Assembly (NCBI GenBank): GCA_040005235.1
Contig: JBDTZG010000028.1
Coordinates: 6,940-70,939, forward strand
DNA from: Acidobacteriota bacterium
GTDB lineage: Bacteria > Acidobacteriota > Thermoanaerobaculia > Multivoradales > UBA5704
Direction of reading: 5' to 3'
Length of the DNA stretch: 64,000 nt
Shown here in pieces: positions 42,928-59,046 of the stretch. Positions within the stretch are counted from its first letter, which is position 1. The number at the start of each line of letters is the position of its first letter. The notes under the pieces are model-generated. The model did no database searches, was not told the DNA's origin, and saw only the letters and a program-made list of their open reading frames with translations. Position numbers and translations under genes: made by a program.

Positions 42928-44437
42928 CGAATCTCTCCGTGAGCGCGCGCTCGATCTCTTCGAAATCCGAAAACGGCAGCTTGCGGTCGCCGATCGTCTG
43001 GTCGCGTTCGTGCCCTTTGCCGGCGATCAGCACGGCCGACCCCTCTTCGGCGGCGGCGATCGCGGTGCGGATCGCATCGCGCCGGTCGGGGATCAATAGA
43101 TAGTTGTTGCGCCCGGTCGAGCGCAGACCCTCTTCCACCGCGGCGAGGATCGCGTGCGGATCTTCGCTGCGCGGGTTGTCGGAGGTGGCGATCGCGAGAT
43201 CTGCCAGCTCGCCCGCGACCCGGCCCATCACCGGCCGCTTGCCCGGATCGCGGTCGCCGCCGCAACCGAAGACGACGATCGTCCGGCCCGGCGCGATCTC
43301 GCGCACCGAGGCGATCGCGGCGGAAAGGGCCGCGTCGGTATGGGCGTAATCGACGATCGCGGCAAACGGCTGGCCGCATTCGACCGGCTCCAGGCGGCCG
43401 GGAACCGGCTGCTGCGCCGCGGCGGCTGCGACCACGGCCGAGACCGGAATTGCCGCCGTCTGGAGCGCCAGGGCGCCCGCGATCGCGGCGGTCAGATTCG
43501 ACAGGTTGTAGCGGCCGAGCAGCGCCGAGGCGATCTCGAATTCATCCAGATTTCCGGAGTCGGAATCGGCCACGACGATCGTCGCGGAGAGCCCATGGCG
43601 ATCGAGCTTCGCGTCGCGCGCCGAGACGGTGGCCGCGTTCCCTTCGACGCTGTAGGTCCAGGCCCCGGGCAGCTCGGCTGCCAGCCGTCGGCCGTACTCG
43701 TCGTCGACGTTGATCACCGCCCGGCCGTTCGGCTTCAAGCGCGTAAACAGCCGGCGCTTCGCGGCGAAGTAGCTCTCCATGTCGCCGTGCAGATCGAGAT
43801 GGTCGCGCGACAGGTTGGTGAACAGAGCGAGATCGAATTCCGCGCCGTCGGCCCGGCCCTGTTCGAGGGCGTGCGACGACACCTCCATGGCCACCGCCGC
43901 CGCCCCGGCGTCGCGCATGGCGCGCAGGGTGCGGAACAGGTCGCTCGCCTCAGGCGTCGTCCGCTCGCCGGGAAAGCTCTTCCCGCGCAGGCGATAGCCG
44001 AGCGTGCCGATGAATCCCGCCGGCTGCCCGGCCTTTTCGAAGATCGCAGCGAGCAGCGTCGCGACGGTCGATTTGCCGTTCGTGCCGGTCACCCCGGCGA
44101 GGATCAGCTCGCGATCCGGATGGCCGTAGATCCGCGCCGCGAGCGGCGGGAGCAGCGCGCGGGGATTCGCCGCCGAAAGCCAGGGGATTTCGGTCCCGAG
44201 CCCCGCCGGACGGTTCCCCGGTGCGACCACCGCGACGGCGCCCCGCTCGACCGCCTGGGGCGCGAACTCCCGGCCGTCGAACCGTCCGCCGGACCAGGCG
44301 ACGAACAGGTCGCCGGGCCGGACCGCGCGCGAGTCGTGGCAAACGCCGGAAATCGTCGGGTCGCCCGGCAGACCGCCGTCGGCTTCCACCGCTAGCCTGA
44401 GCCCGTCGATCAGCTCCGAGAGGGGGAGCGCGCTCAT
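42908..44437 (-). CDS. murE: UDP-N-acetylmuramoyl-L-alanyl-D-glutamate--2,6-diaminopimelate ligase
   Basis: VTGTNGKSTV motif. Start trimmed to ATG 44437, an ATGA overlap with the ftsI stop. The 1134-aa track ORF is read-through. Confidence 0.93.
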   Translation of the reverse strand: MSALPLSELIDGLRLAVEADGGLPGDPTISGVCHDSRAVRPGDLFVAWSGGRFDGREFAPQAVERGAVAVVAPGNRPAGLGTEIPWLSAANPRALLPPLAARIYGHPDRELILAGVTGTNGKSTVATLLAAIFEKAGQPAGFIGTLGYRLRGKSFPGERTTPEASDLFRTLRAMRDAGAAAVAMEVSSHALEQGRADGAEFDLALFTNLSRDHLDLHGDMESYFAAKRRLFTRLKPNGRAVINVDDEYGRRLAAELPGAWTYSVEGNAATVSARDAKLDRHGLSATIVVADSDSGNLDEFEIASALLGRYNLSNLTAAIAGALALQTAAIPVSAVVAAAAAQQPVPGRLEPVECGQPFAAIVDYAHTDAALSAAIASVREIAPGRTIVVFGCGGDRDPGKRPVMGRVAGELADLAIATSDNPRSEDPHAILAAVEEGLRSTGRNNYLLIPDRRDAIRTAIAAAEEGSAVLIAGKGHERDQTIGDRKLPFSDFEEIERALTERFGARLGC

Positions 44438-46353
44438 CCTTCGCCTCCCGGAGTTACGGGCGTTGCCGCCGGGGTAATGCTGAGGGTGCTCGCCGGGATC
44501 GGCCGAACCGCCGGCCGGCCGGTCGGCTGGGTCGCCGGCTGGGCGGCCGGTGTGGCGCGGGCCTTGGGAGCCGCCGGAGGTCCCGGAGCGGCCCCCTCCG
44601 GTGCCGGAGTCAACCCCGCCGTCACCATTTTCGGCATCGCCTGGCCGTCCGGCCAGTCGGGCCGGGCCCGCTCCGGGCGGACGCCGAGGTAGAGCAGGAC
44701 CTGGCGGGCGATCGCGCCGAACACCGGCGCCGCGACCTGTCCGCCGTGATATTCGAAACCCTGCGGCGCGTCGATCGCGACGACGCCGACGATCTGCGGC
44801 CGGTCGCCCGGCGCGAAACCGACGAAGCTCGGCACGTAGTGGTTCCGATCGTAGCCGCCGTCGAGTGGAATCTGCGCCGTCCCGGTCTTGCCGGCCACGT
44901 TGTACCCCTCGACCGCGGCGGACTTGCCCGTTCCTCCGGTCACCACCCCTTCGAGCAGGCGCGTCACTTCGGCGGCGGTGGCCACCGACATGGCGCGCCC
45001 GACCGGCAGCGCCGCGGCATGAAGCGGCTCGATCTGCCCGGCGGCGCCGGTCGCGGCGACCATGTAAGGCCGAAGGCGGACGCCGCCATTGGCGACGGTC
45101 GCCGCCGCCACCGCGAGCTGGAGAGGCGTCACCGACACCCCCTGGCCGAACGAGATGTACGCCTTGCTGAGCGGAAAGCGGCGCCACTCGGACAGGGGGT
45201 GGAGGATGCCCGAGGCCTCGCCGGGCAGGTCGATGCCGCTCTTCCGGCCGAAGCCGAGCGCGCTCGCCATCCCGTACAGCCGCTCGTCGCCGAGCAGCAG
45301 GGCGGTCTTGATCATGCCGACGTTGCTCGATTTGGCGATCGCCTCGGCGAAGGTCAGGAGCCCGAACGGCTTGTGGTCGCGAATCCGGATGCCGGCCAGG
45401 GTGATGCCACCCATGCCGCAGTCGAAGGTGTCGCTCGCCTTGACCACGCCGCTTTCGAGCGCCGCCGAGGCGGTGACGAGCTTGAACGTCGAGCCCGGCT
45501 CGTAGGAATCGGTAACCGCCCGATTGCGCGCCCGGTTGCGCAACAGGTCTTTCGACGTCTCGCCGTACTGGTTCGGATCGAAGCTCGGGTAGCTCGCGAG
45601 AGCCAAAATGCCGCCGGTTCGCGGGTCGAGAAACACCGCCATCCCTTTGCGCGCGCCCCGCTCGTCGACCGTCTGGGCCAGCTCGCGCTCGACGATGTGC
45701 TGGATCGTCGCGTCGAGCGTCAGGTGCAGATCGCGCCCCGGCTCCGGATCGGTGAACGACAGCTCGGGGTCCATCACGGTCCCCTTGCGCGCATCGCGAA
45801 GGACGGTTCGGCGGCCCGGTTTGCCGGCGACGGTCGAGTCGTAGAGCTTCTCCAGCCCTTCCAGGCCATGGTTCTCGGTGCCGACGAACCCGAGCACTTG
45901 GGCGGCCAGCTCGCGCATCGGGTAGTAGCGCTTGCTCTCGGTGACGAACCGTAGTCCTTTGACCTGGAGCGCGCGAATCTGATCGGCGAACTGTGGATCG
46001 AGCTTCCTTTTGATCCAAACGAAGTCGCGGCTCTTGTCGCCCAACTGCTTGGCGAGCTTCTCCGGCTCTTTGTCGACGAGCTTCGAAAGCTGGCGCGCCA
46101 CCGCGGCCGGGTCGGCGATCTCCGAGGGGATGGCGTAGACCGAATCGACCTCGATCGAGACCGCGAGCTCCCTTCCCCGCGCGTCGTAGATCGTGCCGCG
46201 CGGGGCATCGAGCTCGACCACCCGCTGCTGCTGATTGCCGGCGCGCTGGGTGTAGTGCGCGTGGCGGATGACCTGGAGGTAGTAGAGCCGTCCGGTGATC
46301 AGCGCCACCCAAGCGAGGCCGAGGCCGGCGACCACCCGGAGCCGCGTCTTCAC
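44434..46353 (-). CDS. ftsI: class B penicillin-binding protein (division transpeptidase, FtsI/PBP3-like)
   Basis: N-terminal TM anchor. Motifs STFK, SSN and KTGT. Pro/Ala-rich C-terminal tail. Confidence 0.92.
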   Translation of the reverse strand: MKTRLRVVAGLGLAWVALITGRLYYLQVIRHAHYTQRAGNQQQRVVELDAPRGTIYDARGRELAVSIEVDSVYAIPSEIADPAAVARQLSKLVDKEPEKLAKQLGDKSRDFVWIKRKLDPQFADQIRALQVKGLRFVTESKRYYPMRELAAQVLGFVGTENHGLEGLEKLYDSTVAGKPGRRTVLRDARKGTVMDPELSFTDPEPGRDLHLTLDATIQHIVERELAQTVDERGARKGMAVFLDPRTGGILALASYPSFDPNQYGETSKDLLRNRARNRAVTDSYEPGSTFKLVTASAALESGVVKASDTFDCGMGGITLAGIRIRDHKPFGLLTFAEAIAKSSNVGMIKTALLLGDERLYGMASALGFGRKSGIDLPGEASGILHPLSEWRRFPLSKAYISFGQGVSVTPLQLAVAAATVANGGVRLRPYMVAATGAAGQIEPLHAAALPVGRAMSVATAAEVTRLLEGVVTGGTGKSAAVEGYNVAGKTGTAQIPLDGGYDRNHYVPSFVGFAPGDRPQIVGVVAIDAPQGFEYHGGQVAAPVFGAIARQVLLYLGVRPERARPDWPDGQAMPKMVTAGLTPAPEGAAPGPPAAPKARATPAAQPATQPTGRPAVRPIPASTLSITPAATPVTPGGEG

Positions 46354-46694
46354 GGCAGCTCCTCCCAGAAGATCACGCGATTGAGCGCGGGCGGTTCGAG
46401 CCCCAGCTCGTGCCGGGCGCGCTCCTCGATCCGCTGCGGGCTCGCCAGGTAGGCCGCTTCGAGCGACAGTTGCCGTTCGGTGCGGGTCATCTCCCGAAGT
46501 TGGGTTTCGAGTTTGTCGATCTTGTAGCCGGTCGACAGCACTTCGAGATGGATCCAGGTGTACGACAGCAAGCCGACGCCCAGAGCGCCGACCGCCGCCA
46601 GCACCAGACCCAGCTCGCGGAAGCGCTTGCGATCGCGCTCCCGAACCAGGTAGGCGTTGGCGACCGGCCGCGTGAAGGCGTAGGCATTCCTCAC
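46350..46694 (-). CDS. ftsL: cell division protein FtsL
   Basis: 114 aa, a single TM plus a coiled-coil-like region, positioned between rsmH and ftsI. GTGA overlaps at both ends. Confidence 0.8.
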   Translation of the reverse strand: MRNAYAFTRPVANAYLVRERDRKRFRELGLVLAAVGALGVGLLSYTWIHLEVLSTGYKIDKLETQLREMTRTERQLSLEAAYLASPQRIEERARHELGLEPPALNRVIFWEELP

Positions 46695-47635
46695 CGCGTC
46701 TCCAGTCTCCGACCCGCGCGCAGGCGCGCCGAGCGCGACCGGGGGTTGATCGCGATTTCTTCCTCGGTCGGGCGCACCGACCGCTTTGTCAGCAGCTCGA
46801 TCGCCTGGCTCTCCGAGCGGGGACGGCCGGTGACGAGATCGATCTCGCCGCGGTGCAGATCGCGCAGCGTGTTCTTGACGATCCGATCCTCCAGGCTGTG
46901 GTACGAGATGATCACCAGACGCCCTTCGGCGTCGAGCTGGTCGACTGCTTGGTCGAGAAAGCTAAGGAGTCCGGAAAGCTCCTCGTTGACCTCGATGCGC
47001 AGCGCCTGGAACACGCGGGTCGCCGGATCGACCCGCCCTTCGCGATTACGGTGTCCGGCCTCATGCCCCTTGCCGCGGTCGATCGCGCGGCGCAGCTCCG
47101 AGGTGGTCTCGATCGGTTTCTCGCGGCGCGCCGCGACGATCGCGCGCGCGATCCGCCGCGATTGCCGCTCCTCGCCGTACTCCCAGAAGATCTTGGCCAA
47201 TTCTTCCTCCGAGCTTTCGTTCACGATGTCCGCCGCGGTAAGGCCTTCGTGGCCCATCCGCATGTCGAGCGGTCCGCCGAACCGGAAACTGAAGCCCCGT
47301 TCCGGCGAATCGATTTGCAACGACGAAACGCCGAGGTCGGCGAGAATCCCCGCCACCCGGCCGATCCCTTCCGCCCCGAGCAGCTCACCCAGGTCGGCAA
47401 AATTCCCCTCGACCAGCCGCACCCGGGGGCCGAAACGCGCCAACCGTTCGCGCGCGAGCCCGAGCGCTTGGCGGTCGCGATCGATCCCCACCAGCTCGAC
47501 CCCGGGGCCGGCCTCGAGGATCGCTTCCGCGTGACCGCCGAGCCCAAGCGTCGCGTCGACGAACACGCCGCCCCGCTCTGGCGCGAGAAGCTCGACGACC
47601 TCGCGGAGCAGGACGGGGACGTGACGTGCGGCCAC
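46691..47635 (-). CDS. rsmH: 16S rRNA (cytosine1402-N4)-methyltransferase
   Basis: GTG 47635 gives VAARHVPVLLREVVELL...DATLGLGGHAEAIL, the typical RsmH/MraW N-terminus. The longer track ORF is rejected. Confidence 0.92.
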   Translation of the reverse strand: MAARHVPVLLREVVELLAPERGGVFVDATLGLGGHAEAILEAGPGVELVGIDRDRQALGLARERLARFGPRVRLVEGNFADLGELLGAEGIGRVAGILADLGVSSLQIDSPERGFSFRFGGPLDMRMGHEGLTAADIVNESSEEELAKIFWEYGEERQSRRIARAIVAARREKPIETTSELRRAIDRGKGHEAGHRNREGRVDPATRVFQALRIEVNEELSGLLSFLDQAVDQLDAEGRLVIISYHSLEDRIVKNTLRDLHRGEIDLVTGRPRSESQAIELLTKRSVRPTEEEIAINPRSRSARLRAGRRLETR

Positions 47636-47670
47636 GGGCTCTCGATCTCGGCGCGCGGAAGTCGCACGGA

Positions 47671-48114
47671 CTAGATTCCGCCGCGCTCCGCCAGGGCGCG
47701 GGAGTCGTCCTCGGTGAACGGCTGCTCGGCCATCCGCGCGACCAGGCGCTCGTGGTTCCAGACGATCAGGTGGTCGATCTGCGCCATCACCACCACGTCG
47801 CCGCTCATCCCGGCGCTCTCCCGCAGGATCTGCGGAATCACCAACCGCCCCTGGTCGTCCAACCGCACCTGCTGGCCGTAGTAGCTCGCGCGCTCCAGGA
47901 ACCGCTGCTTCGAGGGATCGGCCGAGGGCATCGCTTGGAGCTTCCCCTCGATCTCTTCCCAGACCGGCAGCGGGTAGAGCCGTGCGCAATCGCCGTGGAC
48001 CGAGGTCACGAACAGCTCGCGCCCATACCTCTCCTCAACGAACCGGCGGAAATCCGTCGGCACCTTGAGGCGGCCCTTCTCGTCGATCTTCGCTGGTGAG
48101 CTACCCCGGAACAT
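47671..48114 (-). CDS. mraZ: division/cell wall cluster transcriptional regulator MraZ
   Basis: MFRGSSPAKIDEKGRLKVP and a second DxxxR-type repeat DDQGRLVIP. First gene of the dcw cluster. Confidence 0.95.
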   Translation of the reverse strand: MFRGSSPAKIDEKGRLKVPTDFRRFVEERYGRELFVTSVHGDCARLYPLPVWEEIEGKLQAMPSADPSKQRFLERASYYGQQVRLDDQGRLVIPQILRESAGMSGDVVVMAQIDHLIVWNHERLVARMAEQPFTEDDSRALAERGGI

Positions 48115-48165
48115 GACCCCCGCCTTTGGGTCCAGCTATTTGGAGGGTGATTCTAGTCTGGTTGC

Positions 48166-48190
48166 TCCACTTCTGTCCAATTTTATCCAC
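48166..48190 (-). promoter_or_regulatory. putative MraZ operator: three direct pentamer boxes at 10-bp phase, overlapping a candidate -35
   Basis: The minus strand reads GTGGA-N5-TTGGA-N5-GTGGA (plus-strand tccac 48166, tccaa 48176, tccac 48186). A candidate -10 TAGAAT lies at 48150-48155. Confidence 0.5.
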
Positions 48191-48427
48191 TAGGGGCCAC
48201 CAGGACCCCGCGGTGGGCTCTGAAACCTCTTTCCGCAGGGTCGGCGCGGGCGGCAGAGTCGGCACGGGTGTTGAGTACCCGGTCCGGGCACGAGGCGTAC
48301 CTCAGGGGCTGTCGGCGCAAAAATTTGCGAAATTTGCCGCCCAGGGGTCCCGCTGTCTCGCATTGACGCGCCGAAGCACCGTAACATTGCAGAGACCACA
48401 CAATTGATTCGACCGAGGAGACCCCCC

Positions 48428-49888
48428 GTGTCGCAAAATCCTGTGCCGCTGCTTGCCGTGGTGTTGCGGAATCTCCGCGAGCGAGCCGGCTGGACCCAAG
48501 TCCGGCTCGAACGCGAGGCTCGCCTCAGCAAGGGATCGCTCTGCCGGCTGGAGAAGGGCAGCCAGACGGTCGATCGTTTCCTGCTCAATCGGCTGGCGAA
48601 GGTGATGAGAATCGCCGAGGGTGACGTGGAACAGGCGCTCGCAGTGCTGGAGCAGCTCCCGGCGGAGACCGGCGCCGGTTCGTCCGCGGACCTGCCGGTT
48701 CGCGACCGGCAGACGATCGAAACCGTCAGCGCGCGCTTTTCCCGCATGGTTCGCGAGAAGGCCCAGAACCGAATCGGGGGGAAGGTCCGCGCCCGGCGCT
48801 GGCGTCTCGACCGCGCGGCGGCCGCCGTGGCGTGGCAGCGGCTGCGCAAAATGCCCTCCGAGGATCGCCGGCTGATCGTTAAAGCGGTTGAGGCCTTTCA
48901 CACCTGGGCGGTGGTGGAACGGCTTTGCGAGGAGAGCGTAAGGGCGGCGGCCAGCGATATGGAGGAGGCCCGTAGGCTGGCGCAGCTTGCCCGGCAGGCC
49001 TCGACGGCCGCGAGCGGTGCCGAGCGAAGATATAAGTCGCTCGAAAATTACGCGGCGGCCTTCGAAGCGAACGCCTGGTGCGCTGCCGGCGAATTTCGGA
49101 AAGCCGAGCAGATTTTTGCCGAGGTCGATGCGCTCCATGGAGAAGGGCTGGACATCGCGGCAGTACCGGTCGATTGGGCCAGGCCACTGATCTTTCGAGC
49201 GGTGCTTATGATTTATCGGGCGAACCTCGATCCGGCATTGGAATGGCTGAACGAGGCGCTTTCGCTCACTCGCTCGCCGACCGTCAAGACTTGGGCGTTA
49301 ATCTGGCGAGCCGCTGTGCTCAAGCGGAAGCTCCAATTTCCCGCGGCGCTTGAGGAGCTGGAAAAGGCTCGGCCGTACGCCGAGCTTGCAGGCGATGCCC
49401 GGCTTCGATGGGCCATCGCCTTCAATGAAGCGGGTTATTTATGCGAAGCCGGCCATTTGGCGGAGGCTGCCGCCCGCCTTCCAGCCCTGAAGCTGGCAGC
49501 GTTGGAGCTCGGAGGAGCTCTGGATCGCCTGCGGCTCCGCTGGTTGACCGCGAGAGTGGCTGCTGCTTCAGGCCTGTTCCAGGAAGCCGCGACGAACCTC
49601 TCCGAGGTTTGGAATGCCTTTGCCGACCGGAACCTCTGGCTCGACGCGGCGATCGCGGTTCTCGAGCTGGCCAGCATCAACCTGGAGATGGGTCTGTCTG
49701 CCCAGGTCAAGAAGCTCGCCACGGCATCTGCTCACGTCTTCGCGGCGCAGACCCTGCCCGACCACCTTCTCGCGGCGGTTCGACTATTCTGGCAGGCCGC
49801 CCTTCAGGAAGCGGCCACTTCACAAATGGCGCGACAGCTGGTTGGGGACCTTCGCCGCGCCATGGTGGCAAACGCCGAAGCCTCCTGA
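48428..49888 (+). CDS. long XRE-HTH regulator with helical-repeat (TPR-like) C-terminal domain (R1)
   Basis: HTH LRNLRERAGWTQVRLEREARLSKGSLCRLEKG. Family signature FHTWAVVERLCEESV. About 300 aa of helical repeats. GTG 48428 has RBS GAGGAG; the track start is TTG 48404. Confidence 0.75.
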   Translation: MSQNPVPLLAVVLRNLRERAGWTQVRLEREARLSKGSLCRLEKGSQTVDRFLLNRLAKVMRIAEGDVEQALAVLEQLPAETGAGSSADLPVRDRQTIETVSARFSRMVREKAQNRIGGKVRARRWRLDRAAAAVAWQRLRKMPSEDRRLIVKAVEAFHTWAVVERLCEESVRAAASDMEEARRLAQLARQASTAASGAERRYKSLENYAAAFEANAWCAAGEFRKAEQIFAEVDALHGEGLDIAAVPVDWARPLIFRAVLMIYRANLDPALEWLNEALSLTRSPTVKTWALIWRAAVLKRKLQFPAALEELEKARPYAELAGDARLRWAIAFNEAGYLCEAGHLAEAAARLPALKLAALELGGALDRLRLRWLTARVAAASGLFQEAATNLSEVWNAFADRNLWLDAAIAVLELASINLEMGLSAQVKKLATASAHVFAAQTLPDHLLAAVRLFWQAALQEAATSQMARQLVGDLRRAMVANAEAS

Positions 49889-49907
49889 AGTCGTCGTCTC
49901 GCTTGGG

Positions 49908-50195
49908 CTAGGTCCCACACAGACCGTTCGGGTTGATCTCGCAGCCGACTTCGCCGAGAGGAGGCTTACTTCTCGGGCGACCGGAGTCGGAAGCACTGCG
50001 TCCGTCTGGGCTTGCGCCGCGGCGCCCGCTGGGCTCGATCTCGCAACCGCTCGGCGCCCACAGCGCGGAAAAGAATCTCCCGGCTTTGGCGAGCAGGTTC
50101 CCGAGATCCCACGGTGCGGCGGAGGCCTGGGTCGGGAAGGCGAGGACCACGACGAGAAGCAAGAGCGGCAGACGGCGGGGCGACGAAGCGGACAT
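49908..50195 (-). CDS. small secreted Cys-loop repeat peptide (pepA, 95 aa)
   Basis: Signal peptide MSASSPRRLPLLLLVVVLAFPTQASA, then FFSALW, module GCEIEPSGRRGAS and the terminal GCEINPNGLCGT. Paralogous to 58620-58952. Confidence 0.65.
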   Translation of the reverse strand: MSASSPRRLPLLLLVVVLAFPTQASAAPWDLGNLLAKAGRFFSALWAPSGCEIEPSGRRGASPDGRSASDSGRPRSKPPLGEVGCEINPNGLCGT

Positions 50196-50395
50196 GACCG
50201 ACTCCTATTCCGAGGGGACCGGCGCCGCGGCCTCCATGGCCGAACGGGCACCCTGCGAGTTCTTCCAGGCGCGCCTGGGCGAAGCTTGGACGCAAAATTT
50301 TGTGCTGCCAGGCGTACGGTGGGGTCTATCTTAGGAGCAAGCCCCGCCCTGCACGCTCTTTCGATACGATTCCCTCCAGAAACTCGGGAGGTGAC

Positions 50396-51220
50396 ATGAA
50401 CGACGCCTTGGATCGCCGCGCGGCAGGCTTGGTGATGCAGTTGTTTCGCTTCATGGCCGGCCGCCACCAGCACGACCTGAGCGAACGGACCGGGATCGAC
50501 ATAAAGCGGATTTCGCGTTACGAGCAGGGAAAAGTTCTGCCTCTTCGGCCGACGCTCGAACGACTCGCTGCGGGCGTCGGCGTCTCCGCGACCCGGCTCG
50601 ATCAGCTTCTCGCGTTGATTCGCACCGTGTGCGCCGAGGGCGAGGCGGCGACCGCCCAAAAGGAGCACGCCACAGCAGACCCCGACGAGTCCGATTGGCC
50701 GGACGATCTCGCCGAGCTGGCGGCGGAGATCGCCGAAGACCTACAGCCCGAGATTTACCAAGCCCTGAAGGAATTGAACGCCGAGCTGAACGCGCCGCCT
50801 CCGCCACTCGCCCCGGAAGCGGCGCGCGCCCAGGCTCGGGAGCTATGGGGAAGGTTCGAACCCTTGCCGGATCGCGTTCGCCGCCTGGTGATCGAACATG
50901 GCAAGGAGTACCAAACCTGGGCCTTTTGCGAACGGCTCTGCGAAGCAAGCCTCGACGCCGGATCGCGCGCGCCGGAGGACGGTCAGGCCTTGGCCGACCT
51001 GGCGCTCTCGGTCGCCGAGGCCGCCCAAGGGTCCGACGTGCTGCGCCAGCGCCTGACCGCCTTCGCCCTCGCCTGCGCCGCCCACGCGGATGTCCTCGCC
51101 GGGGACTCGGAAGAGGCCGCCGAGAAGCTGGGCCGGGCCAAGGCGCTCTGGACGGCCGGGGACGGCACCGACGATCTCGACCTCGGCCAGATCGCCGATC
51201 TGGTGCCCGCCGACTCGTAA
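50396..51220 (+). CDS. short XRE-HTH regulator paralog (R2)
   Basis: RBS GGGAGG lies before ATG 50396. HTH HQHDLSERTGIDIKRISRYEQG. Signature YQTWAFCERLCEASL. It lacks the long C-terminal repeat domain. Confidence 0.7.
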   Translation: MNDALDRRAAGLVMQLFRFMAGRHQHDLSERTGIDIKRISRYEQGKVLPLRPTLERLAAGVGVSATRLDQLLALIRTVCAEGEAATAQKEHATADPDESDWPDDLAELAAEIAEDLQPEIYQALKELNAELNAPPPPLAPEAARAQARELWGRFEPLPDRVRRLVIEHGKEYQTWAFCERLCEASLDAGSRAPEDGQALADLALSVAEAAQGSDVLRQRLTAFALACAAHADVLAGDSEEAAEKLGRAKALWTAGDGTDDLDLGQIADLVPADS

Positions 51221-51229
51221 GGAGTCCCC

Positions 51230-51631
51230 TCAGTTCGGCGCCCGCCGACTTGCGTCCGGCGGAAGCTCCGGCGGCGGCGGGCCGAGACGGCGCTCCAGGT
51301 CGGCGATCTTCTGTTCGAGATCTTCCGCCAGGATTTCGAGAGCCTGACAGAGCCGGTCCTCTTCCTCGGTCACCGTCGAGAGCCGCCGGGTCGCGGCGAG
51401 CCCGGCGAACGCCTGCTTTGTATGCCAGAGGTCGTCGATGCCGGCGCGCGTTCCCGCCTTGAGCCACGGTTCTCCGAACCCCGAGCCGTCTTCCAGCTCC
51501 AGCGCTTCCTCGGCGATCTTTTCGCAGGCATCCTGGACGCGTTGGCGCAAACCCGGCCGGGTGAAATGGACCAGGACCGACTCGCGGAACGGCGCCATCT
51601 CTCTCCAGCGGCGCTTGATCGGGTTGGTCAT
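51230..51631 (-). CDS. hypothetical cytoplasmic protein (S1)
   Basis: 133 aa, with a 4-nt overlap with the upstream S2 gene. No recognisable motif. Confidence 0.5.
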   Translation of the reverse strand: MTNPIKRRWREMAPFRESVLVHFTRPGLRQRVQDACEKIAEEALELEDGSGFGEPWLKAGTRAGIDDLWHTKQAFAGLAATRRLSTVTEEEDRLCQALEILAEDLEQKIADLERRLGPPPPELPPDASRRAPN

Positions 51632-52062
51632 CCTGGGGATGCCCGTCGCTCAGTCCGCACGGCGGCCCGGTGCCGGCCCAGGCGTCTCTCCTGCACCAGA
51701 CCCAGGAATGCGTCCCGATTCGCGGCCCCATGGGTCATCAGCGCCGCGAAGACCCGAAGGTTCAGACGGGCACCTTCCGGGGGCGGTGTACCTTCCAAGA
51801 GGGCGAGCAGTCGGGCGGCCAGCTCCGGCAAGATGCCCCCTCGCCCCTGGCGCAACAATACGGTTCCCAGCTCGATGTAGGCGTCCGCCGCTGCCATCAC
51901 CTCGCCCGATGCGCGCCAGGTTCCCGCGGCGCGGCCGAACAGTCGCGCCGCCTCTTCGAGGTTCCCATCGTCCCGCTCGCGCTCGGCCCGGTCGAAGATC
52001 TCTCCGGCGGCCCGCCGCAACTCGCCGGGTGCGAGGGGAGAGGCCGGACTTACAGAGGCCAT
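51628..52062 (-). CDS. hypothetical helical protein (S2), resembles the C-terminal module of R1/R3
   Basis: 144 aa. ...DDGNLEEAARLFGRAAG...AADAYIELGTVLLRQG...LAARLLALL... parallels the R1 and R3 C-termini and paralog S3. Confidence 0.55.
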   Translation of the reverse strand: MASVSPASPLAPGELRRAAGEIFDRAERERDDGNLEEAARLFGRAAGTWRASGEVMAAADAYIELGTVLLRQGRGGILPELAARLLALLEGTPPPEGARLNLRVFAALMTHGAANRDAFLGLVQERRLGRHRAAVRTERRASPG

Positions 52063-52499
52063 TCCATTCCTTTTCTGTGCTTCCGGACGTCCGCGAGCAA
52101 CTCGCCTAGTAACGGCGAGCTCGGCGGGGTGATCTCGAGCAAGAGCAAAAGGTTGGAAAAAAGCTCGATTTCCGGCGGCGCCACGGCGAGCGTCGCCGGC
52201 TTGGCGGCGAGCCAGTCCGGCAGGTCGACACGTTCAAGGCGATAGACCGCGGCCAGCGAGAGCGCCGCTAGCCCTTCGAGCCAGGGTTGCTCCGCTTTGC
52301 CGAAGGCATGGACGGCGAGAATAAAACTCTCTTCTGCCTGGGACAGGTTGCCCGCCGCCGCGGCGCGCTCGGCAAAATCCATCGAGCGCCAAGCCAACCG
52401 GAAAAAAGCCGGATGCGCCGGTTCCTTAGCCGGCGCATCCGCGGGCCCTGCGAGCGCGAGAGGGGGTGCGGGTCGCCCGCAGGGGAAAAAGGAGTCCAT
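52050..52499 (-). CDS. hypothetical helical protein (S3), paralog of S2
   Basis: 149 aa. ...AAGNLSQAEESFILAVHAF...LAALSLAAVYRLE... has the same layout as S2. 13-nt overlap with S2. Confidence 0.5.
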   Translation of the reverse strand: MDSFFPCGRPAPPLALAGPADAPAKEPAHPAFFRLAWRSMDFAERAAAAGNLSQAEESFILAVHAFGKAEQPWLEGLAALSLAAVYRLERVDLPDWLAAKPATLAVAPPEIELFSNLLLLLEITPPSSPLLGELLADVRKHRKGMEWPL

Positions 52500-52694
52500 G
52501 CGTGCGAGGGTAGGTCCAGGGATTCAGCTTTCGCGCTAGCCTGCCGCTCGTGGATGGCGTAGTTATCCATTTCGATAACATTTCTTGGGATGCCGGGGAA
52601 CTTTCCCAGCTCGTCATGCCGAGCGAGAGCTCTGCACACTCCAGCGGAGGCGGGGGGGAGTTCCGGCACTACATTCAATATTGCAGGAACCACC

Positions 52695-53810
52695 CTAGGG
52701 CTGCAGGCCGCCGTTCCACGAAGTGTCCTTGAGCAGATCGGCCCAATTCACGTCGGCGCTCAGCACATTGAATTCGTCGCTGCCGTCCGAGAAGACGTTG
52801 AGGTGTGCCGCCCGCCGAAAGACCTCCTCGCCTTGAATTTCGAAGCCGGGCCGTAGCGGCGGCAAGATGTAGAGGCCCATCCACGGACTACCGGTTGGGT
52901 TACAGCCCGTCTGGCCGGAAGCGGTGCAGAAGGGGAGCGCCGTGATTTCGCCCGTCGTCAAGCGTCCCTGGGTATCGGTGTGCAGGCGCAGCAGGAAGGG
53001 GATTTCCAGGTCACTGTAGACACACACTCCGTCGTCATCGCAGGAAAGGGCAGAGTCATAGGCGTCAATCCGGTAAGTCAGCGGCTCCTCCGCCCGGTAG
53101 AGAGCGGTCTTGTAGGAAATAAAGGCGCAGAACGGATTGGGAATGGGTTCCGCCAGGCAGCCTGTCGGCCGAACCGTCCGCGCGAGGATCGAGTAGACCT
53201 TGAGGTCAAAGTCGGTCACTTCGGTATGGCAGGGAGAGAGTAGGTCGTCGACGGTCAAACCGCGTCCCGCGGTGTCCGCGTGGTCCGCCTGCGCGTCCTG
53301 GAGAGTGGTGATCCGAATCGAATTCTTCGGCTGAAAAGGGTCTGGCGGCTCCCGGGACAGGATGAGATCCACGAGCATCGAGAACCGGGTCGTCCCCTCG
53401 AGATTCGAAGACGCATCCCGCCGAACCAAGGTGGCCTGGGGCCGGCGATCCCTTCGGGGGTTCAAGAAGTCCTCGTCCTCGCGAAGGATCAGGTCGAACG
53501 CCAGCTGTTTCTCCTGTCGCTCGCGGTCGCCTTGAACCGTGGTGTGTCGCAACTGGCTGGTGCTGGCCAATCCTCTGTAGGTGCCGCCATTGGCGCTCGA
53601 CCGCCAGAGGAGGAGGCTCGACTCCCCGTAGGAAACCCCCATGCGGTGCAGCAACCTCCCCATTTGCCGCTCTTCGCAGGCGACCTGCTCGGACGTGAGG
53701 GGGCGGCCGAAGGGCTGGGCCACAGCATTGCGTACCGCACATGCGCCGAAGACCAGGGCCACGGCCCAAGCCGGCACCCGCCACCCTACGGCTGCAGGCC
53801 GCCGTTCCAC
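52695..53810 (-). CDS. secreted Cys-containing protein of unknown function (P1), tandem paralog of P2
   Basis: Collinear with P2 over the full length (QPFG.PLTSEQVACEERQMGRLLHRMGVSYGE ... NWADLLKDTSWNGGLQP). GTG start at 53810; an alternative is GTG 53777. Confidence 0.7.
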   Translation of the reverse strand: MERRPAAVGWRVPAWAVALVFGACAVRNAVAQPFGRPLTSEQVACEERQMGRLLHRMGVSYGESSLLLWRSSANGGTYRGLASTSQLRHTTVQGDRERQEKQLAFDLILREDEDFLNPRRDRRPQATLVRRDASSNLEGTTRFSMLVDLILSREPPDPFQPKNSIRITTLQDAQADHADTAGRGLTVDDLLSPCHTEVTDFDLKVYSILARTVRPTGCLAEPIPNPFCAFISYKTALYRAEEPLTYRIDAYDSALSCDDDGVCVYSDLEIPFLLRLHTDTQGRLTTGEITALPFCTASGQTGCNPTGSPWMGLYILPPLRPGFEIQGEEVFRRAAHLNVFSDGSDEFNVLSADVNWADLLKDTSWNGGLQP

Positions 53811-54889
53811 GAGGTGTCCTTGAGCAGGTCCGCCCAGTTGACGTCGGCACGTAGAATGTTCAAGTCAGGAAAGGCAACCGAGAAAAGGTTCAGGTGGGCC
53901 GCACGCCGAAAGACTTCCTCTCCCTGAACCTCGATGCCGGGTCTCAGGGGAGGTAAGACGTAAAGGCCCATCCAAGGACTGTCCTCCGGGCTGCATCCGG
54001 TTTGGCCCGACGCTGTGCAAAACGGCAGCAGCGAGACCTCCCCGGATGCCAACCGGCCTTGGGCGTCGGCTTGGATGCGAAACAGCAGTGAATTCTGCTC
54101 GTCGCTGTAAACGCACACGCCGTCTTCGTCGCAGGACAACGAGGAGAGATATACGTCGGCCCGATAGGTCAGCGGCTCCTCCGCGCGGTAGAACGCGGTT
54201 TTAAAGGAAATGAATCCGCAGACCGGGTTGGGAATGGGTTCCGCCAGGCAGCCCGTCGGCCGCACCGTCCGGGCGAGGATCGAGTAGACCTTTAGGTCGA
54301 AATCGGTCACCTCAGTATGGCAGGTATTCAAAAGGTCGTCGACGGTCAGACCGCGTCCGGCGGTGTCCGCGTGGTCCTCCGGCGCTTCCTGGAGGGTGGT
54401 GATCCGGATCGAATTCTTTGGGTGGAAAGGGTCGGGCGGCTCCGGGGACAGGATGAGATCTACGAGCATCGAGAACCGGGTCGTTCCCATCGGGTCGAGG
54501 TTCGACGCCGCGTCCCGCCGGACCAGCGTCGCCTGCGGGCGGCGTTCCCGCCGGGGGTTCAAGAAGTCTTCATCGGCGCGGAGAATCAGGTCAAACGCCA
54601 GCTGTTTCTCATCGCGCATCCGGATGTCTACGGTCGTCGTAGGATCGAAATAAAGGTGGTCCGTACTGGCCAAGCCTCTGTAGCTGCCGCCGTTGGCCGC
54701 CGATCGCCAAAGGTAGAGGCCAGCCTCGCCATATGAGACCCCCATACGATGAAGCAATCGCCCCATCTGGCGCTCCTCGCAGGCGACCTGCTCGGACGTG
54801 AGGGGGCTGCCGAAGGGCTGGGCCGCCATAATTCCCGGGGCGATGATTACCAGGAAGAGAATCGCGAACAACGCGCTTTTGGGTTTCAT
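53786..54889 (-). CDS. secreted Cys-containing protein of unknown function (P2)
   Basis: ATG 54889 with signal peptide MKPKSALFAILFLVIIAPGIMAAQ. The track ORF's N-terminal extension is rejected. Confidence 0.75.
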   Translation of the reverse strand: MKPKSALFAILFLVIIAPGIMAAQPFGSPLTSEQVACEERQMGRLLHRMGVSYGEAGLYLWRSAANGGSYRGLASTDHLYFDPTTTVDIRMRDEKQLAFDLILRADEDFLNPRRERRPQATLVRRDAASNLDPMGTTRFSMLVDLILSPEPPDPFHPKNSIRITTLQEAPEDHADTAGRGLTVDDLLNTCHTEVTDFDLKVYSILARTVRPTGCLAEPIPNPVCGFISFKTAFYRAEEPLTYRADVYLSSLSCDEDGVCVYSDEQNSLLFRIQADAQGRLASGEVSLLPFCTASGQTGCSPEDSPWMGLYVLPPLRPGIEVQGEEVFRRAAHLNLFSVAFPDLNILRADVNWADLLKDTSWNGGLQP

Positions 54890-55098
54890 AGCTTCCCCGC
54901 TGAACCTGTCTTCTGTTGGACCTGGAGAACGATGTCGAAGGAATAGAACGGCGAAACGATCTCGCAACTTCCCCCGTTGCAGGTTTTGTGGATGGGATCC
55001 CAATTGATGGTCTGGACTGCCGTCATGGTTCCCGTTGCCGGCGTGACCCACTGGACCTCGAACCGATCGGCCGTCGGTCCGAGGTTCAAGAGCGTCAA
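54886..55098 (-). CDS. small protein X, translationally coupled to P2; the true N-terminus is probably further upstream
   Basis: ATGA overlap with the P2 start. The frame stays open and protein-like up to about 55320, but the first ATG/GTG/TTG in frame is TTG 55098. Confidence 0.5.
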   Translation of the reverse strand: MTLLNLGPTADRFEVQWVTPATGTMTAVQTINWDPIHKTCNGGSCEIVSPFYSFDIVLQVQQKTGSAGKL

Positions 55099-55321
55099 GC
55101 GGTCTTGGTATTTCTGCGCCAGCCAGATCCGCGCGTCGAAAGCGTTGCGCGGGAGAAATATCGGTTTGGCGCTCGGAGACGTGGACTCTTTGGGGCATCC
55201 GTTCGCAGTGAACTCCGCCTCGGGCGCGTTCGATGCCGTGCTGGCCGCGCAGCGGATCGTGCTGTGGTGTAGATAGAGCAGGAAAAGCCGGTTCGGCTCC
55301 GGTCTCCGACCTGGATCGGCA

Positions 55322-56821
55322 TCAATCGGTATCCGTCGGAGATTGAGGGCCTTGATGTAGGTCGGGTCTCGCAGCGCTATTGGGCAGCCCTCCAGACCAA
55401 GCTGACCGGGACGAGGTGAGGCGCCCGAGCGGCAGCGCGTTGACGAATTTCTTGAGTACGCCGAGTTGGCGCCGAATGGTCGCGGGGGTGTTCGGGTCGC
55501 CTCCGGAGAGATATCCGAAATGGTCGTAGGTGGCGCCCTGGTCGAACAGAAACTCCCAGGCTTCGGCGCGCGCCGGTTCGGCGAGCTTTTCTGTCAGGGC
55601 GCCGTTGGTATGGGCGCGGGTGCCGCTCTTGCCTCCGACATCTGGGTTGCCGATGAACTGACCGGCGCCTTTGGTCGTAAACGGCTGTACCGCCACCAAA
55701 TGCCCGCCGGCGGCCAAGCGCGGGTATTTCGCTTCCTGAAAGGTGACCTGGGCAATCATGTCGCGCTGCCACTTGGCGACCTCGAGGGGATCGACGGTCT
55801 GGGCCTCCGGCTCGTTGGCGATCTCCCAATAGACGGTGTCGAAGCACCAGAGTTCTTGGACCGTCCACTCGATCACTTTGGCCTGGGCCACGCGCATGCG
55901 CTCGTTCGTCAGGGCCTCCTGGGTGCCTCGCGTGTCGTGGGTCACGAAGTACTCGGGCTTTGAGAACTTCACCGTCTCGAACGTCCCGTCCGACTTCGGC
56001 ATCATCCCCTTGCCGCCCCAGGGACCCTGGGAGAAGAAATCTCCCTCGAACGGCGCGAAGATGGTCACTTCGACGATCATCTTCCTCGGGTCCTGGGCGT
56101 AGGCCACGACATCGCGCAAGCGTTGGAAATACCGCGTGTTCGGCTTGTCCAGGCGCCAGAACGGGTAGGCGTTGGCCGGGAAGTTGGCGCAGTCGGGGCT
56201 CGCCACGGCGCTCGGGCAATAGAGGAACGGGACGTTGTTCGGGTTTTTCTCTCCGGCCAGGGCGATCCAGAGGCGGAGCTTGTTCAGGCCCGCTTCGAAG
56301 GCGGCTTGGATCGTCGTGGGGTAGTTGGTCCAGTTGCATTTGTCGGAGGAGAGTTCGAGGTGGCAGCCGTTGTCAGCCGAGACGCCGACGAGGGTCTGGA
56401 TCGTGTTGCGGTACGAAAAGTAGCGCGAGGCGAAAGGCAGGGCGGCGGTCGTTTTGCCGATCTTGATCGGGGTGATCGTCTGCGTGATGTTGCCGCAACC
56501 GGTGGCGGAAATCGTGGGATCGGCCGGAACGTCGGGGTCGGTGCCCAGCAGCTCGGGCGGATAGAGATCCTCCGAGTCGAGCGAATTCGGGTCGCCGTCG
56601 TAGGGGAGCAAGTCGTCGCCGAGGGTCCACAGCTCGGCGGGCAAGCTGGGGTCGGTGGTCGAGCCACCGTCGCCGAAGACGGAAGAGAGGGGTGGCTCTT
56701 CTTCGGGTCCGGGTGGGGGTTGGGCGGGAAGGGGGGCACCGACCGAGAGGAACGAAAGAAAGATGAAGGCGAGGGTCGCACGGTGGCAGAGGGATAAGAG
56801 TAGCGAGCGAGTTCGGTCCAC
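55322..56821 (-). CDS. secreted glycoside hydrolase clan GH-A (GH5-like) candidate
   Basis: Signal peptide, a Pro/Asp-rich linker and a TIM-barrel-like domain with YWEIANEPE (the NEP acid/base motif). GTG start at 56821 with RBS AAAGGA. Confidence 0.5.
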   Translation of the reverse strand: MDRTRSLLLSLCHRATLAFIFLSFLSVGAPLPAQPPPGPEEEPPLSSVFGDGGSTTDPSLPAELWTLGDDLLPYDGDPNSLDSEDLYPPELLGTDPDVPADPTISATGCGNITQTITPIKIGKTTAALPFASRYFSYRNTIQTLVGVSADNGCHLELSSDKCNWTNYPTTIQAAFEAGLNKLRLWIALAGEKNPNNVPFLYCPSAVASPDCANFPANAYPFWRLDKPNTRYFQRLRDVVAYAQDPRKMIVEVTIFAPFEGDFFSQGPWGGKGMMPKSDGTFETVKFSKPEYFVTHDTRGTQEALTNERMRVAQAKVIEWTVQELWCFDTVYWEIANEPEAQTVDPLEVAKWQRDMIAQVTFQEAKYPRLAAGGHLVAVQPFTTKGAGQFIGNPDVGGKSGTRAHTNGALTEKLAEPARAEAWEFLFDQGATYDHFGYLSGGDPNTPATIRRQLGVLKKFVNALPLGRLTSSRSAWSGGLPNSAARPDLHQGPQSPTDTD

Positions 56822-57041
56822 GGCGCTGTCCTTTCAAGGTTTCCGCGTTACGCGGAAGACTGCTGGAACGGTAGCAGCGCCGACGATATTTTCGCAAACA
56901 ATTTCATCACATTCGGTATGGCTTTCAGATTTCTGCGGCTCTGGGGTGACCTGGGAACTGAGACGGATGGGAGCGGGCGTTTTCTGCCCGCGGGGCGATG
57001 ACGATGAACGGTGAGGACCCTAAGAGCCAAATGCTCCCAAT

Positions 57042-57060
57042 GAGGAAACCAGGTTTCCTC
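57042..57060. promoter_or_regulatory. perfect 19-bp palindrome in the divergent GH5-like/R3 intergenic region
   Basis: GAGGAAACC-A-GGTTTCCTC, about 100 bp upstream of the R3 start. Confidence 0.4.
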
Positions 57061-57158
57061 TCTGTGCGGCGGGCAGGCGTCCCAATTTATTTGTTGTCAC
57101 GAAAAGTGCCTCAGCGGCAACAAGATGTATTAAAGACACCAGACCCCGGAGAACCGCG

Positions 57159-58613
57159 ATGCCCAAGGTGGACCTGCCGCCGACGAATGCGGCGCTATTG
57201 ATTTTGCGCATCCTGTGTCGCCTGACACAGGATGAGTTCGGCGAGCTGACCGGCATGAAGAGCCGGATCGTCGAGATCGAGAATGGCCGGTATGTCCTTA
57301 AGCGCGCCGAGCTCGAAGATCTGGTGGAGGAGCTCAAGGTGTCGGCCTACGCGGTGCCGGTCGCCCTCGGCCTATCGGAGCTGGTGTTGCCGTCGACCGA
57401 CAAGACCCCCCACCCCTGGGAGGCGACGCCCGACGCGCGGTTTCAGGCCGAGCGCGCGACCCTCGAATCGTCCGCCATCGTGCGCCGTCTGTTCCTCGCC
57501 GAAGCGCGCGCGGAGCGCTACGCGGCGGACCGCGAGGAGGCCGAGCGCCTCTGGAAGCTGCTTGCGCCGCTCAATCGCGACCGGCGGCGGGTGATGGCCC
57601 GGATCGTCGATTTCTCGACCTGGGCGGTGGTCGAGCGCCTCTGCATCGAGAGCCTCAGGGGAGCGCCTCGGGATCCCGGGGCCGCCCGCTCGCTCGCCGA
57701 GCTGGCCGTTGAGGTGGCCCAGAGGATTCCGCCGCTGCCCAGGTTCAGCGATCGGGTGGAAGGGTACGCCCAGGCCCACTTGGGCAACGCCTTTCGAGTC
57801 GGGAACGACTTTGACGAGGCGGTTCGCGCTTTCGCGCTCGTCGCGAAACTTTGGATCGAGTTCCTGCCGGGCGAGGCCTGCCCGTTTGACGTGACGCTGA
57901 TCCCCGACCTAGAAGCTTCTCTGCGCCGCGATCAGCGTCAATTCTCCTTAGCGTTCGCTGGGCACGACCGGGCTCTTTCCTTCGCTGTCGAGGATGCGAT
58001 CCGCGGGCGCATCCTCCTCAATAAGGCAGTGACATTCGAGCATTCCGGCGATCCAGTTGGTGCGGTTGCAACTCTCAGCGCTGCTCAGCCTCTTATCGAC
58101 ACGAGCAACGAAACCCGGCTGGGTTGTGTCGCGCGTTTCAACTTGGCGGTCAACCTCCTCCATCTTGGAAACGCCTTAGATGCCGAGCCGCTGATCGCCG
58201 AGGTGCGGGCGCTTGCGATCGAACAGCGAAACGAGCTTGACCTGATCCGGGTCCTTTGGCTCTCCGGCCGCCTTGCCGCCGCGCAAGGAGATCGGGCGAA
58301 GGCGATGGTCTCGATCGATGACGCGGCCTGTCGCTTCGCCGAACAGGGCCTCGGATATGACGCCGCACTGGCGGTGCTCGACCTCGCGGGGCTGCTCTTG
58401 GAAGAAGGCAACCCGAGAGAGGCAGCCCGGAGGGTGGCCGAGGTGCAACCCACTTTCCACGTGCGAAACATTCACCGGGAGGAACTGGCGAGCCTGGTTC
58501 TGTTCCTCCAAGCCGTCGAAACCGAAGCGGCGACCGCCGCGCTGGCGCGCGCGGCGGCCGAGGCCTGGAGGTTGTTCGGCACGCCCGTTCCTTTCGGAAG
58601 TCTGGCCGACTGA
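57159..58613 (+). CDS. long XRE-HTH regulator with helical-repeat (TPR-like) C-terminal domain (R3)
   Basis: HTH LTQDEFGELTGMKSRIVEIENG. Signature FSTWAVVERLCIESL. The C-terminal repeats are collinear with R1. Confidence 0.75.
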   Translation: MPKVDLPPTNAALLILRILCRLTQDEFGELTGMKSRIVEIENGRYVLKRAELEDLVEELKVSAYAVPVALGLSELVLPSTDKTPHPWEATPDARFQAERATLESSAIVRRLFLAEARAERYAADREEAERLWKLLAPLNRDRRRVMARIVDFSTWAVVERLCIESLRGAPRDPGAARSLAELAVEVAQRIPPLPRFSDRVEGYAQAHLGNAFRVGNDFDEAVRAFALVAKLWIEFLPGEACPFDVTLIPDLEASLRRDQRQFSLAFAGHDRALSFAVEDAIRGRILLNKAVTFEHSGDPVGAVATLSAAQPLIDTSNETRLGCVARFNLAVNLLHLGNALDAEPLIAEVRALAIEQRNELDLIRVLWLSGRLAAAQGDRAKAMVSIDDAACRFAEQGLGYDAALAVLDLAGLLLEEGNPREAARRVAEVQPTFHVRNIHREELASLVLFLQAVETEAATAALARAAAEAWRLFGTPVPFGSLAD

Positions 58614-58619
58614 AATGAA

Positions 58620-58952: not shown

Positions 58953-59028
58953 GGCGGTGGGCTCCTGGTCAGCCCGGGAACCTCCGGCCGGGATGGCCGG
59001 CGGCCCGGTACGAAGGGGTTCAGAGGGT

Positions 59029-59046
59029 AACCCAAGTTTTTGGGTT
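59029..59046. promoter_or_regulatory. AT-rich inverted repeat between pepB and R4
   Basis: AACCCAA-GTTT-TTGGGTT, with perfect 7-bp arms, 22 bp upstream of the R4 ATG. Confidence 0.4.

Follow-up and report, generated by a model that had tools for sequence, protein, structure and literature searches.

Signalling by genetically encoded peptides through cytoplasmic tetratricopeptide repeat (TPR) receptors is viewed as a hallmark of the Gram-positive Bacillota and of their phages and plasmids, and Gram-negative bacteria are thought to use small molecules for signalling. The RRNPP(A) systems (Rap-Phr, PlcR-PapR, NprR-NprX, PrgX, Rgg-SHP and AimR-AimP) are described in the literature as a Bacillota family (PMC10075063, PMC9765709, PMC12700828), and Rap-Phr provides an established case of pheromone propeptides duplicated in tandem (PMC11343458). 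Here we describe pepA, a small gene of an Acidobacteriota bacterium found in a stretch of 64,000 nucleotides (nt) of contig JBDTZG010000028.1 (hereafter the window; all positions refer to it), together with two flanking genes, R2A and R1A, that encode regulators with an XRE-type helix-turn-helix (HTH) domain. The reading proposed here, in which we place middling confidence, is that pepA encodes the pro-signal of an RRNPP-like propeptide/receptor signalling cassette. This reading is suggested because the cassette, consisting of pep and two HTH/TPR regulators, is conserved while its outer flanks vary; because the receptor combines an XRE HTH with a TPR fold whose best template modelling score (TM-score) is with RapJ-PhrC; because the peptide has a Sec signal, no compact fold and tandem modules of which the C-terminal one is always kept; and because R1 and R2 have a common sensor domain, a palindrome is present at both pepA and R2A, and several divergent cassettes occur per genome.

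The resemblance to the RRNPP(A) systems involves both gene arrangement and protein architecture. As in those systems, a small gene for a secreted propeptide adjoins the gene for a cytoplasmic TPR-type receptor, the active part (here a candidate one) lies at or near the C-terminus of the propeptide, and, as exemplified by Rap-Phr, many divergent paralogous cassettes are present in a single genome, with at least three in this organism. The receptors of the pep cassettes also carry an N-terminal XRE HTH, as do the RRNPP(A) receptors other than Rap. Several properties, however, set the two apart. The pep receptors have no detectable sequence homology to Rap, Rgg, NprR, PlcR, PrgX or AimR, and their hosts are Acidobacteriota, which are diderm, whereas RRNPP(A) systems are described from Bacillota and their mobile elements. 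The candidate signal is a loop with paired Cys residues rather than a linear unmodified peptide, each pep gene is flanked by two receptor paralogs, and the long receptor gene is convergent with pep instead of being co-directional or divergent. In the Phr propeptides of the phages phi3T and phi105, the repeats are linear penta- or hexapeptides that are cut out by extracellular proteases (PMC11343458). The Pep repeats, by contrast, comprise about 12-16 residues, each with a Cys pair, and neither the loop pattern nor a receptor relative, and hence no cassette, was found on viral contigs; accordingly, there is no arbitrium-like phage link. Among the described systems, Rgg2 and Rgg3 of Streptococcus pyogenes are two paralogous HTH-TPR-type regulators that share the same class of SHP peptides and common operators. 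This pair may serve as an analogy for R1 and R2, with the difference that in R1 and R2 the HTH regions differ and the sensor domains are alike.

The coding sequence of pepA (49908-50195, reverse strand, as are all its parts given below) consists of 95 codons and a stop; it translates exactly as in the initial annotation of this DNA, and an identical product is called on two independent assemblies. PepA starts with a Sec-type signal peptide, MSASSPRRLPLLLLVVVLAFPTQASA (residues 1-26; 50118-50195), with a probable cleavage site ASA/A, which is followed by a conserved amphipathic helix region, APWDLGNLLAKAGRFFSALWAP (residues 27-48; 50052-50117), delineated in alignments A1, A4 and A5 and predicted by AlphaFold2 as a helix of residues 31-45. 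This region of pepA may be a pro-region. Next comes module 1, the degenerate GCEIEPSGRRG (residues 50-60; 50016-50048), in which the closing Cys is replaced by Arg, and then a basic spacer rich in Ser, Arg and Pro (residues 61-83). Within the spacer, the ortholog alignment pairs PDGRSAS (49989-50009) with the second half of CEIxPDGRCAS in the orthologs and so identifies it as the remnant of a module 2 that has lost both Cys. The protein ends with the intact module 3, GCEINPNGLCGT (residues 84-95; 49911-49946), that is, the loop C85-X7-C93 plus two residues directly before the stop, which is the candidate mature peptide. The initial annotation had described a degenerate loop ahead of an intact C-terminal C-X7-C loop, and both are present in the translation; it had also claimed that the motif is common to pepA and its paralog pepB, and a six-frame regular-expression search of the window for C-x2-[DEN]-P-x-G-x(1,2)-C matched the open reading frames (ORFs) of these two genes and no others. 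Mature PepA contains three Cys residues, of which C51 of module 1 is unpaired because the closing Cys of that module is an Arg and the module 2 remnant has lost both of its Cys. The AlphaFold2 model, built on an alignment of 127 sequences, has no compact fold (predicted local distance difference test score, pLDDT, 61; predicted template modelling score, pTM, 0.26) and consists of two helices (residues 8-19 and 31-45), a disordered linker (62-83) and a small C-terminal beta-hairpin. The module 2 remnant, the unpaired C51, the flanking HTH/TPR genes, the membership of pepA in a tandem-repeat family and the size of that family go beyond what had initially been noted.

Non-translation of the ORF, which the initial annotation had named as an outcome that would overturn its reading, was addressed by comparison of eight orthologs. 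The pairwise ratios of nonsynonymous to synonymous substitution rates (dN/dS) of pepA against the seven others range from 0.13 to 0.45, variable alignment columns are most numerous at the third codon position (90, as against 63 and 59 at the other two), and the ribosome-binding site AGGAG (50202-50206, reverse strand), located 6 nt before the ATG, is invariant in the eight orthologous upstream regions. These observations speak for translation, and the pattern of substitution indicates that pepA is a real gene, translated and under purifying selection. The suggestion that the product is an exported small protein likewise held up: heuristics based on hydropathy, charge and the AXA motif reveal a positively charged n-region, a strongly hydrophobic core and the ASA/A site, and the N-terminus of PepA is predicted to have, and probably has, the n/h/c layout of a Sec (signal peptidase I) signal. 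The same heuristics, applied to 260 family members, detect a strongly hydrophobic core in 97% and a Lys or Arg ahead of it in 99%.

PepA belongs to a large family. Eleven close homologs were collected in alignment A1, and a profile search of 1.84 billion representative proteins retrieved 429 clusters (at 50% identity) with E<=1e-3, 74 of these with E<=1e-10, nearly all of 80-185 amino acids (aa); a second profile search for the family yielded 427 proteins. Homologs with a conserved motif, which the initial annotation had proposed to look for, do therefore exist. The named source organisms of the Pep and receptor matches are exclusively Thermoanaerobaculia, Holophagales or Acidobacteriota metagenome-assembled genomes. 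The architecture of the family is constant and includes a signal peptide, a helix with the consensus LLxRxWxxLxxLW, and between one and six (typically three) tandem modules with the consensus [DEK]-x-G-C-x-[ILV]-D-P-[NDSH]-G-[RG]-C, which are connected by linkers of Pro, Ala, Ser and Thr, mostly 8-18 residues long. Within the modules, the Gly immediately before the first Cys (99%) and, in the loop, Asp3 (89%), Pro4 (97%) and Gly6 (99%) are highly conserved, and both Cys are kept in 758 of 810 modules (94%). The conserved unit is thus longer than the disulfide-cyclised nonapeptide whose release the initial annotation had suggested as a possibility, given that a hydrophobic pair, an acidic residue and the invariant Gly precede the first Cys. 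In 112 of 161 members, exactly two residues separate the last Cys from the stop codon. At loop position 1, 51% of the module pairs within one protein agree, compared to 11% of the pairs between proteins, which is the pattern expected if the modules are copies of one product and this residue sets the specificity of each precursor.

The subfamily of pepA is distinguished by E-I-x-P in place of x-I-D-P and by erosion of upstream modules, with the C-terminal module intact in all close homologs. One of these proteins, P0002, matches pepA at every one of its last 18 residues even though both of its upstream modules have decayed. The view of the Cys loop as the conserved functional unit is thereby upheld, with both Cys retained across the family at the frequency given above and the C-terminal loop always intact. 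In locus L046 (577-1005; protein P0149), three successive modules have GCLIDPxG without the closing Cys, which is present in the last module only; loss of the disulfide partner thus need not entail loss of the first Cys and the DPxG turn.

Searches of pepA and pepB against Pfam, NCBIfam and PADLOC produced no matches, nor did a search of the family profile against the sequences in the Protein Data Bank (PDB), and no paper containing the loop sequences was found in the literature. The statement of the initial annotation that it recognised no known bacteriocin, RiPP (ribosomally synthesized and post-translationally modified peptide) or pheromone family thus agrees with these searches, in which nothing covering the family was found. 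Partial matches to DUF6799 (PF20606), an uncharacterised domain for which we found no publication, were detected in 13 of 127 relatives at E<=0.01, two of them above the gathering score; these matches span only one or two loop modules, and pepA, pepB and most members have none. The Copsin, conotoxin and metallothionein models of Pfam that some relatives matched weakly and over short stretches were judged to reflect Cys-pattern noise. The Pep family and its cassette are undescribed in the databases and literature searched.

The pepA gene lies between R2A (48428-49888, forward strand), which encodes a 486-aa XRE-HTH and TPR regulator and is convergent with pepA (HTH_31 in Pfam; AlphaFold2 model; a ribosome-binding site GAGGAG before the GTG at 48428), and R1A (50396-51220, forward strand), which encodes a 274-aa XRE-HTH protein and is divergent from pepA (Pfam HTH_31 and HTH_3; HTH_31 E-value 7.5e-8). 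The same order is found in a second complete cassette of the window. Here pepB (58620-58952, reverse strand) encodes a 110-aa paralog with the modules GCSLDPHGGRG, GCSLDPYGRCG and GCVVDPEGRCGQ, as seen in its translation and in the motif search; R2B (57159-58613, forward strand), a 484-aa HTH and TPR regulator that is 30% identical to R2A, is convergent with pepB; and R1B (59068-59955, forward strand), a short paralog with the probable start MERKSG..., is divergent from it. A third cassette of the same organism is located on another contig (P0063). At locus L013, orthologous cassettes of the pepA and pepB types are only about 3.6 kb apart, and the six genes between the two cassettes of the window therefore look like an insertion.

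The linkage of the three genes was recovered from both directions. A genome scan by the receptor alone, seeded with the narrower receptor alignment A3, identified 15 loci, and in 14 of these a pep-family ORF is adjacent; the tight convergent spacing, usually with 15-25 nt between the stops, recurs across the loci. Conversely, a metagenome scan by the loop DNA alone, with a hand-made degenerate pattern and with neighbours detected by local hidden Markov model searches, identified 38 loci; a convergent receptor homolog is present in 26 of the 29 with sufficient downstream flank, and a divergent receptor or HTH homolog in 24 of the 27 with sufficient upstream flank. Two loci, L033 and L046, contain R-pep-R-pep-R tandem arrays. 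The outer flanks differ among loci and include the dcw (division and cell wall) cluster, toxin-antitoxin genes, IS66, a ribosomal protein operon and serS (seryl-tRNA synthetase), and across the contexts examined, no gene for an enzyme, a transporter or an immunity protein is a conserved part of the cassette. The stops of R2A and pepA are 19 nt apart (49889-49907), with no intrinsic terminator or hairpin between them; the two transcripts should therefore overlap, and regulation at this junction could involve antisense effects or transcriptional interference.

In Pfam searches, HTH_3 was found in all 34 receptor homologs, HTH_31 in 32 and TPR families in most. The AlphaFold2 model of R2A (pLDDT 84, pTM 0.73) comprises a five-helix HTH, a poorly predicted linker, a long helix and an all-helical TPR superhelix. 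In a Foldseek search with this model, the best TM-score was obtained with RapJ-PhrC (0.67, normalised by target), and the model superposes on peptide-bound Rap, NprR, AimR and PlcR. R1A is a truncated paralog of R2A that retains the HTH, the linker and the first TPR-like helices (BLASTP E-value 2e-11), and its orthologs at L003, L006 and L026 are of similar size (275-277 aa). Where R1 is full-length (L051, L024 and L025), it shares 50-76% identity with the R2 of its own cassette over the sensor domain, which runs from about residue 140 to the end, and the HTH and linker regions of the same pair give no BLASTP alignment; between cassettes, the identity of the sensor domains is only about 40%. 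This distribution of similarity suggests that R1 and R2 combine different DNA-binding parts with one common, cassette-specific ligand, and that the likeness of their TPR domains in L024, L025 and L051 results from domain-limited gene conversion or from co-evolution with the same ligand.

The intergenic region between pepA and R1A is unusually conserved. It contains an invariant operator-like palindrome, CGCAAAATTTTGTG (50291-50304), that is present in all eight orthologous regions, and a pattern search detected a second operator-like copy, GCAAAAATTTGCGAAATTTGCC (48317-48338), about 100 nt upstream of R2A. In the window, the palindrome pattern has four matches on the two strands, corresponding to two palindromic sites, compared to 0.16 expected; the palindrome recurs upstream of pep in L003, L008 and L010-L013 and upstream of the R2 orthologs in L003 and L008. 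Between pepB and R1B, a different palindrome, AACCCAA-N4-TTGGGTT (59029-59046), was read from the sequence of this window only. Such cassette-specific palindromes fit an autoregulation of each cassette by its own HTH proteins. A nearly invariant block in alignment A6, CCTAAGATA (50328-50333, reverse strand; TAAGAT on the pepA strand), is a possible -10 element of a putative pepA promoter, although a simple sigma-70 scan yielded no call at this position. The leader of pepA, about 125 nt long (50196-50322, reverse strand), is far more conserved than expected of intergenic DNA and includes a GGCC-ATGAA-GGCC hairpin and an ACCG...CGGT pairing between the ribosome-binding site and the start codon. 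RNAalifold found only two covarying pairs in the leader, and covariation cannot confirm the structure given that the paired bases are invariant; a search of 47000-61000 against Rfam gave no matches.

Under the signalling reading, pepA would be the propeptide gene of a self-contained cassette that consists of R2 (HTH-TPR, convergent), pep and R1 (HTH or HTH-TPR, divergent). PepA, made with its Sec signal peptide, would be exported into the periplasm, where the paired Cys of the intact modules would be oxidised to form a small beta-hairpin loop, and the disordered precursor would be cut into short loop peptides; in pepA, only the C-terminal unit (...GCEINPNGLCGT) is intact. The peptide would build up with cell density, and the TPR domains of both cytoplasmic regulators would sense it, either by direct contact once it is taken up or by an indirect route; the regulators would bind the palindromic operators of pepA/R1 and R2 and thereby close an autoregulated, cassette-specific signalling loop. 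Besides the loop alone, the module peptide GEVGCEINPNGLCGT of pepA is a candidate ligand of the TPR domains of R2A and R1A. For PepA, we infer each of these events, namely cleavage, disulfide formation, release, uptake, binding and the regulatory outcome.

A number of considerations weigh against this reading. No cultured host emerges from these data, and because the hosts belong to a diderm phylum, a periplasmic peptide would have to cross the outer membrane and then be re-imported; the cassette includes no transporter, and no Opp-type importer was identified. The disulfide would probably be reduced in the cytoplasm, and the known RRNPP pheromones are linear and unmodified. One of the three Cys in pepA has no partner, and the strongly conserved N-terminal helix has no role in the signalling model. 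As to the receptor, the Foldseek score of RapJ-PhrC falls within the range of generic TPR proteins (APC subunits, LGN), the top 60 matches of the 34-receptor profile among all PDB sequences are generic TPR and XRE-HTH chains with no RRNPP structure among them, and the receptors match no RRNPP-specific Pfam or NCBIfam model. Judging from the structural model, the receptor could work like an RRNPP receptor without necessarily belonging to that family.

Rather unlikely in our estimate is the alternative that Pep is a secreted or periplasmic effector, such as a defensin-like or antimicrobial hairpin, a multi-headed protease inhibitor with 9-residue disulfide loops, or an adhesive or binding module, with the HTH/TPR pair being dedicated regulators that answer another cue. 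Sec export combined with disulfide-type loops is typical of extracellular effectors, and hypervariability of loops is known also in toxins and inhibitors; yet the two regulators are the sole conserved partners of pep, with no gene for immunity, export or a target among them, and a near-identical sensor domain in R1 and R2 of one cassette is hard to explain by a cue unrelated to the cassette. Class II bacteriocins offer a similar comparison, in that Pep has a Sec-type signal but neither an immunity nor an exporter gene is conserved in its cassette. The C-X7-C loop with a central Pro recalls, and equals in length, the reactive loops of Bowman-Birk inhibitors and SFTI-1; the Pep consensus, however, is C-x-[ILV]-D-P-[NDSH]-G-x-C, and the Bowman-Birk consensus C-T-P1-S-x-P-P-x-C (with any residue at P1, C-T-x-S-x-P-P-x-C) is absent. 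That upstream modules decay freely and one module suffices also argues against an effector, and although some members have weak Cys-pattern matches to the Copsin and conotoxin models of Pfam, the matches to defensin and conotoxin models are short and marginal.

The N-terminal helix, the most conserved element outside the loop and one for which the pheromone model has no explanation, would be accommodated if Pep functions as an intact small protein, either a precursor that is held by the TPR domain via the helix and by its export frees the regulators, in the manner of FlgM, or a thiol, redox or metal buffer in the periplasm. Helical or extended segments are frequent ligands of TPR domains, metal could be bound by Cys pairs together with Asp, and Sec-exported Cys-rich metal-binding peptides do exist, for example bufferins, which combine a Sec signal peptide with conserved Cys. 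We nevertheless consider an intact protein improbable: the AlphaFold2 model lacks a compact fold, the number of modules varies from one to six and modules are lost while the gene stays, the cassette contains no MNIO/DUF692, metal-transport or redox gene, and XRE-TPR proteins are not known as metal sensors. Multi-core RiPP precursors, such as those of cyanobactins, consist of repeated core units with conserved flanks, and Pep likewise has tandem core-like repeats with conserved flanks and with invariant Cys, Asp and Pro/Gly. It is nonetheless very improbable that Pep is a multi-core RiPP precursor whose Cys are modified (by thioethers onto Asp or Asn, or as heterocycles) by enzymes encoded elsewhere in the genome, given that a Sec signal peptide takes the place of a cytoplasmic leader, that the annotated neighbourhoods of eight pep genes contain no gene for a radical-SAM enzyme, MNIO, YcaO, lanthionine synthetase, LanM/LanB, peptidase or ABC exporter beside pep, and that the cassette flanks vary between loci. 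In contrast to both cyanobactins and bufferins, no modifying enzyme gene is associated with pep, and the motifs differ; the pairing of precursor and enzyme genes that marks ranthipeptides, sactipeptides and lanthipeptides is likewise absent from these neighbourhoods. Finally, spurious ORFs are numerous in a window with 66% G+C, but the possibility that pepA is an untranslated chance frame in GC-rich DNA is practically negligible and is refuted by the dN/dS values, the third-position variation, the invariant ribosome-binding site, the 429 clusters and the conserved synteny.

The surroundings of the two cassettes contain other genes of note. The dcw cluster of cell-division and cell-wall genes (mraZ, rsmH, ftsL, a penicillin-binding protein gene, murE, murF and mraY, among others; about 31000-48114, reverse strand) lies directly beside the pepA cassette, with a sigma-70-like promoter TGGACA-18-TAGAAT (48150-48179) preceding mraZ; the cassette adjoins mraZ in L003 as well and does not in L006. 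Three small overlapping genes (51230-52382, reverse strand) for products of 133, 144 and 110 aa converge on R1A, and the 144-aa product has a weak TPR_12 match; these genes are present in L001 and are not found beside the L003 ortholog, and may represent either vestiges of the cassette or its accessory TPR proteins. Farther between the cassettes (52695-55198, reverse strand) are two tandem paralogs, listed as 371 and 470 aa and 79% identical over 346 residues, with probable signal peptides, several conserved Cys and no Pfam or NCBIfam match. Beyond the pepB cassette, tandem duplicate genes (60024-61324, reverse strand) encode probably secreted proteins of about 195 aa that have hydrophobic N-termini and are 83% identical to each other; Pfam gave nothing for the product of 60024-60611, the duplicate that was scanned. 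After these genes come a 541-aa ORF (61333-62958), whose product has a hydrophobic N-terminus and likewise lacks Pfam matches, and a gene (63130-63891, reverse strand) for an ArsR-type HTH fused to a domain that resembles low-molecular-weight phosphotyrosine phosphatase and arsenate reductase (LMWPc, E-value 1.7e-20).

If pepA is the pro-signal of an RRNPP-like cassette, a broader proposal, which we put forward tentatively, is that the Pep family constitutes the first RRNPP-type peptide-pheromone quorum sensing outside the Bacillota. It would be a large, diversifying family of Acidobacteriota (Thermoanaerobaculia) in which disulfide-closed beta-hairpins are cut from tandem, Sec-exported precursors and are read by two flanking HTH-TPR sensors with a common sensor domain and different DNA-binding domains, and its origin would be independent or very anciently diverged. 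A literature search on RRNPP systems in Acidobacteria or diderms and on peptide signalling in Thermoanaerobaculia found nothing relevant. Should the proposal prove true, peptide quorum sensing would extend to a widespread, poorly cultured soil phylum, with a new signal chemistry, the disulfide-stapled hairpin, and hundreds of natural peptide/receptor pairs would become available for studying the evolution of specificity. Should the peptides turn out to be effectors, they would still form a large group of secreted mini-hairpins, so far entirely uncharacterised, whose scaffold is simple and can be synthesised.

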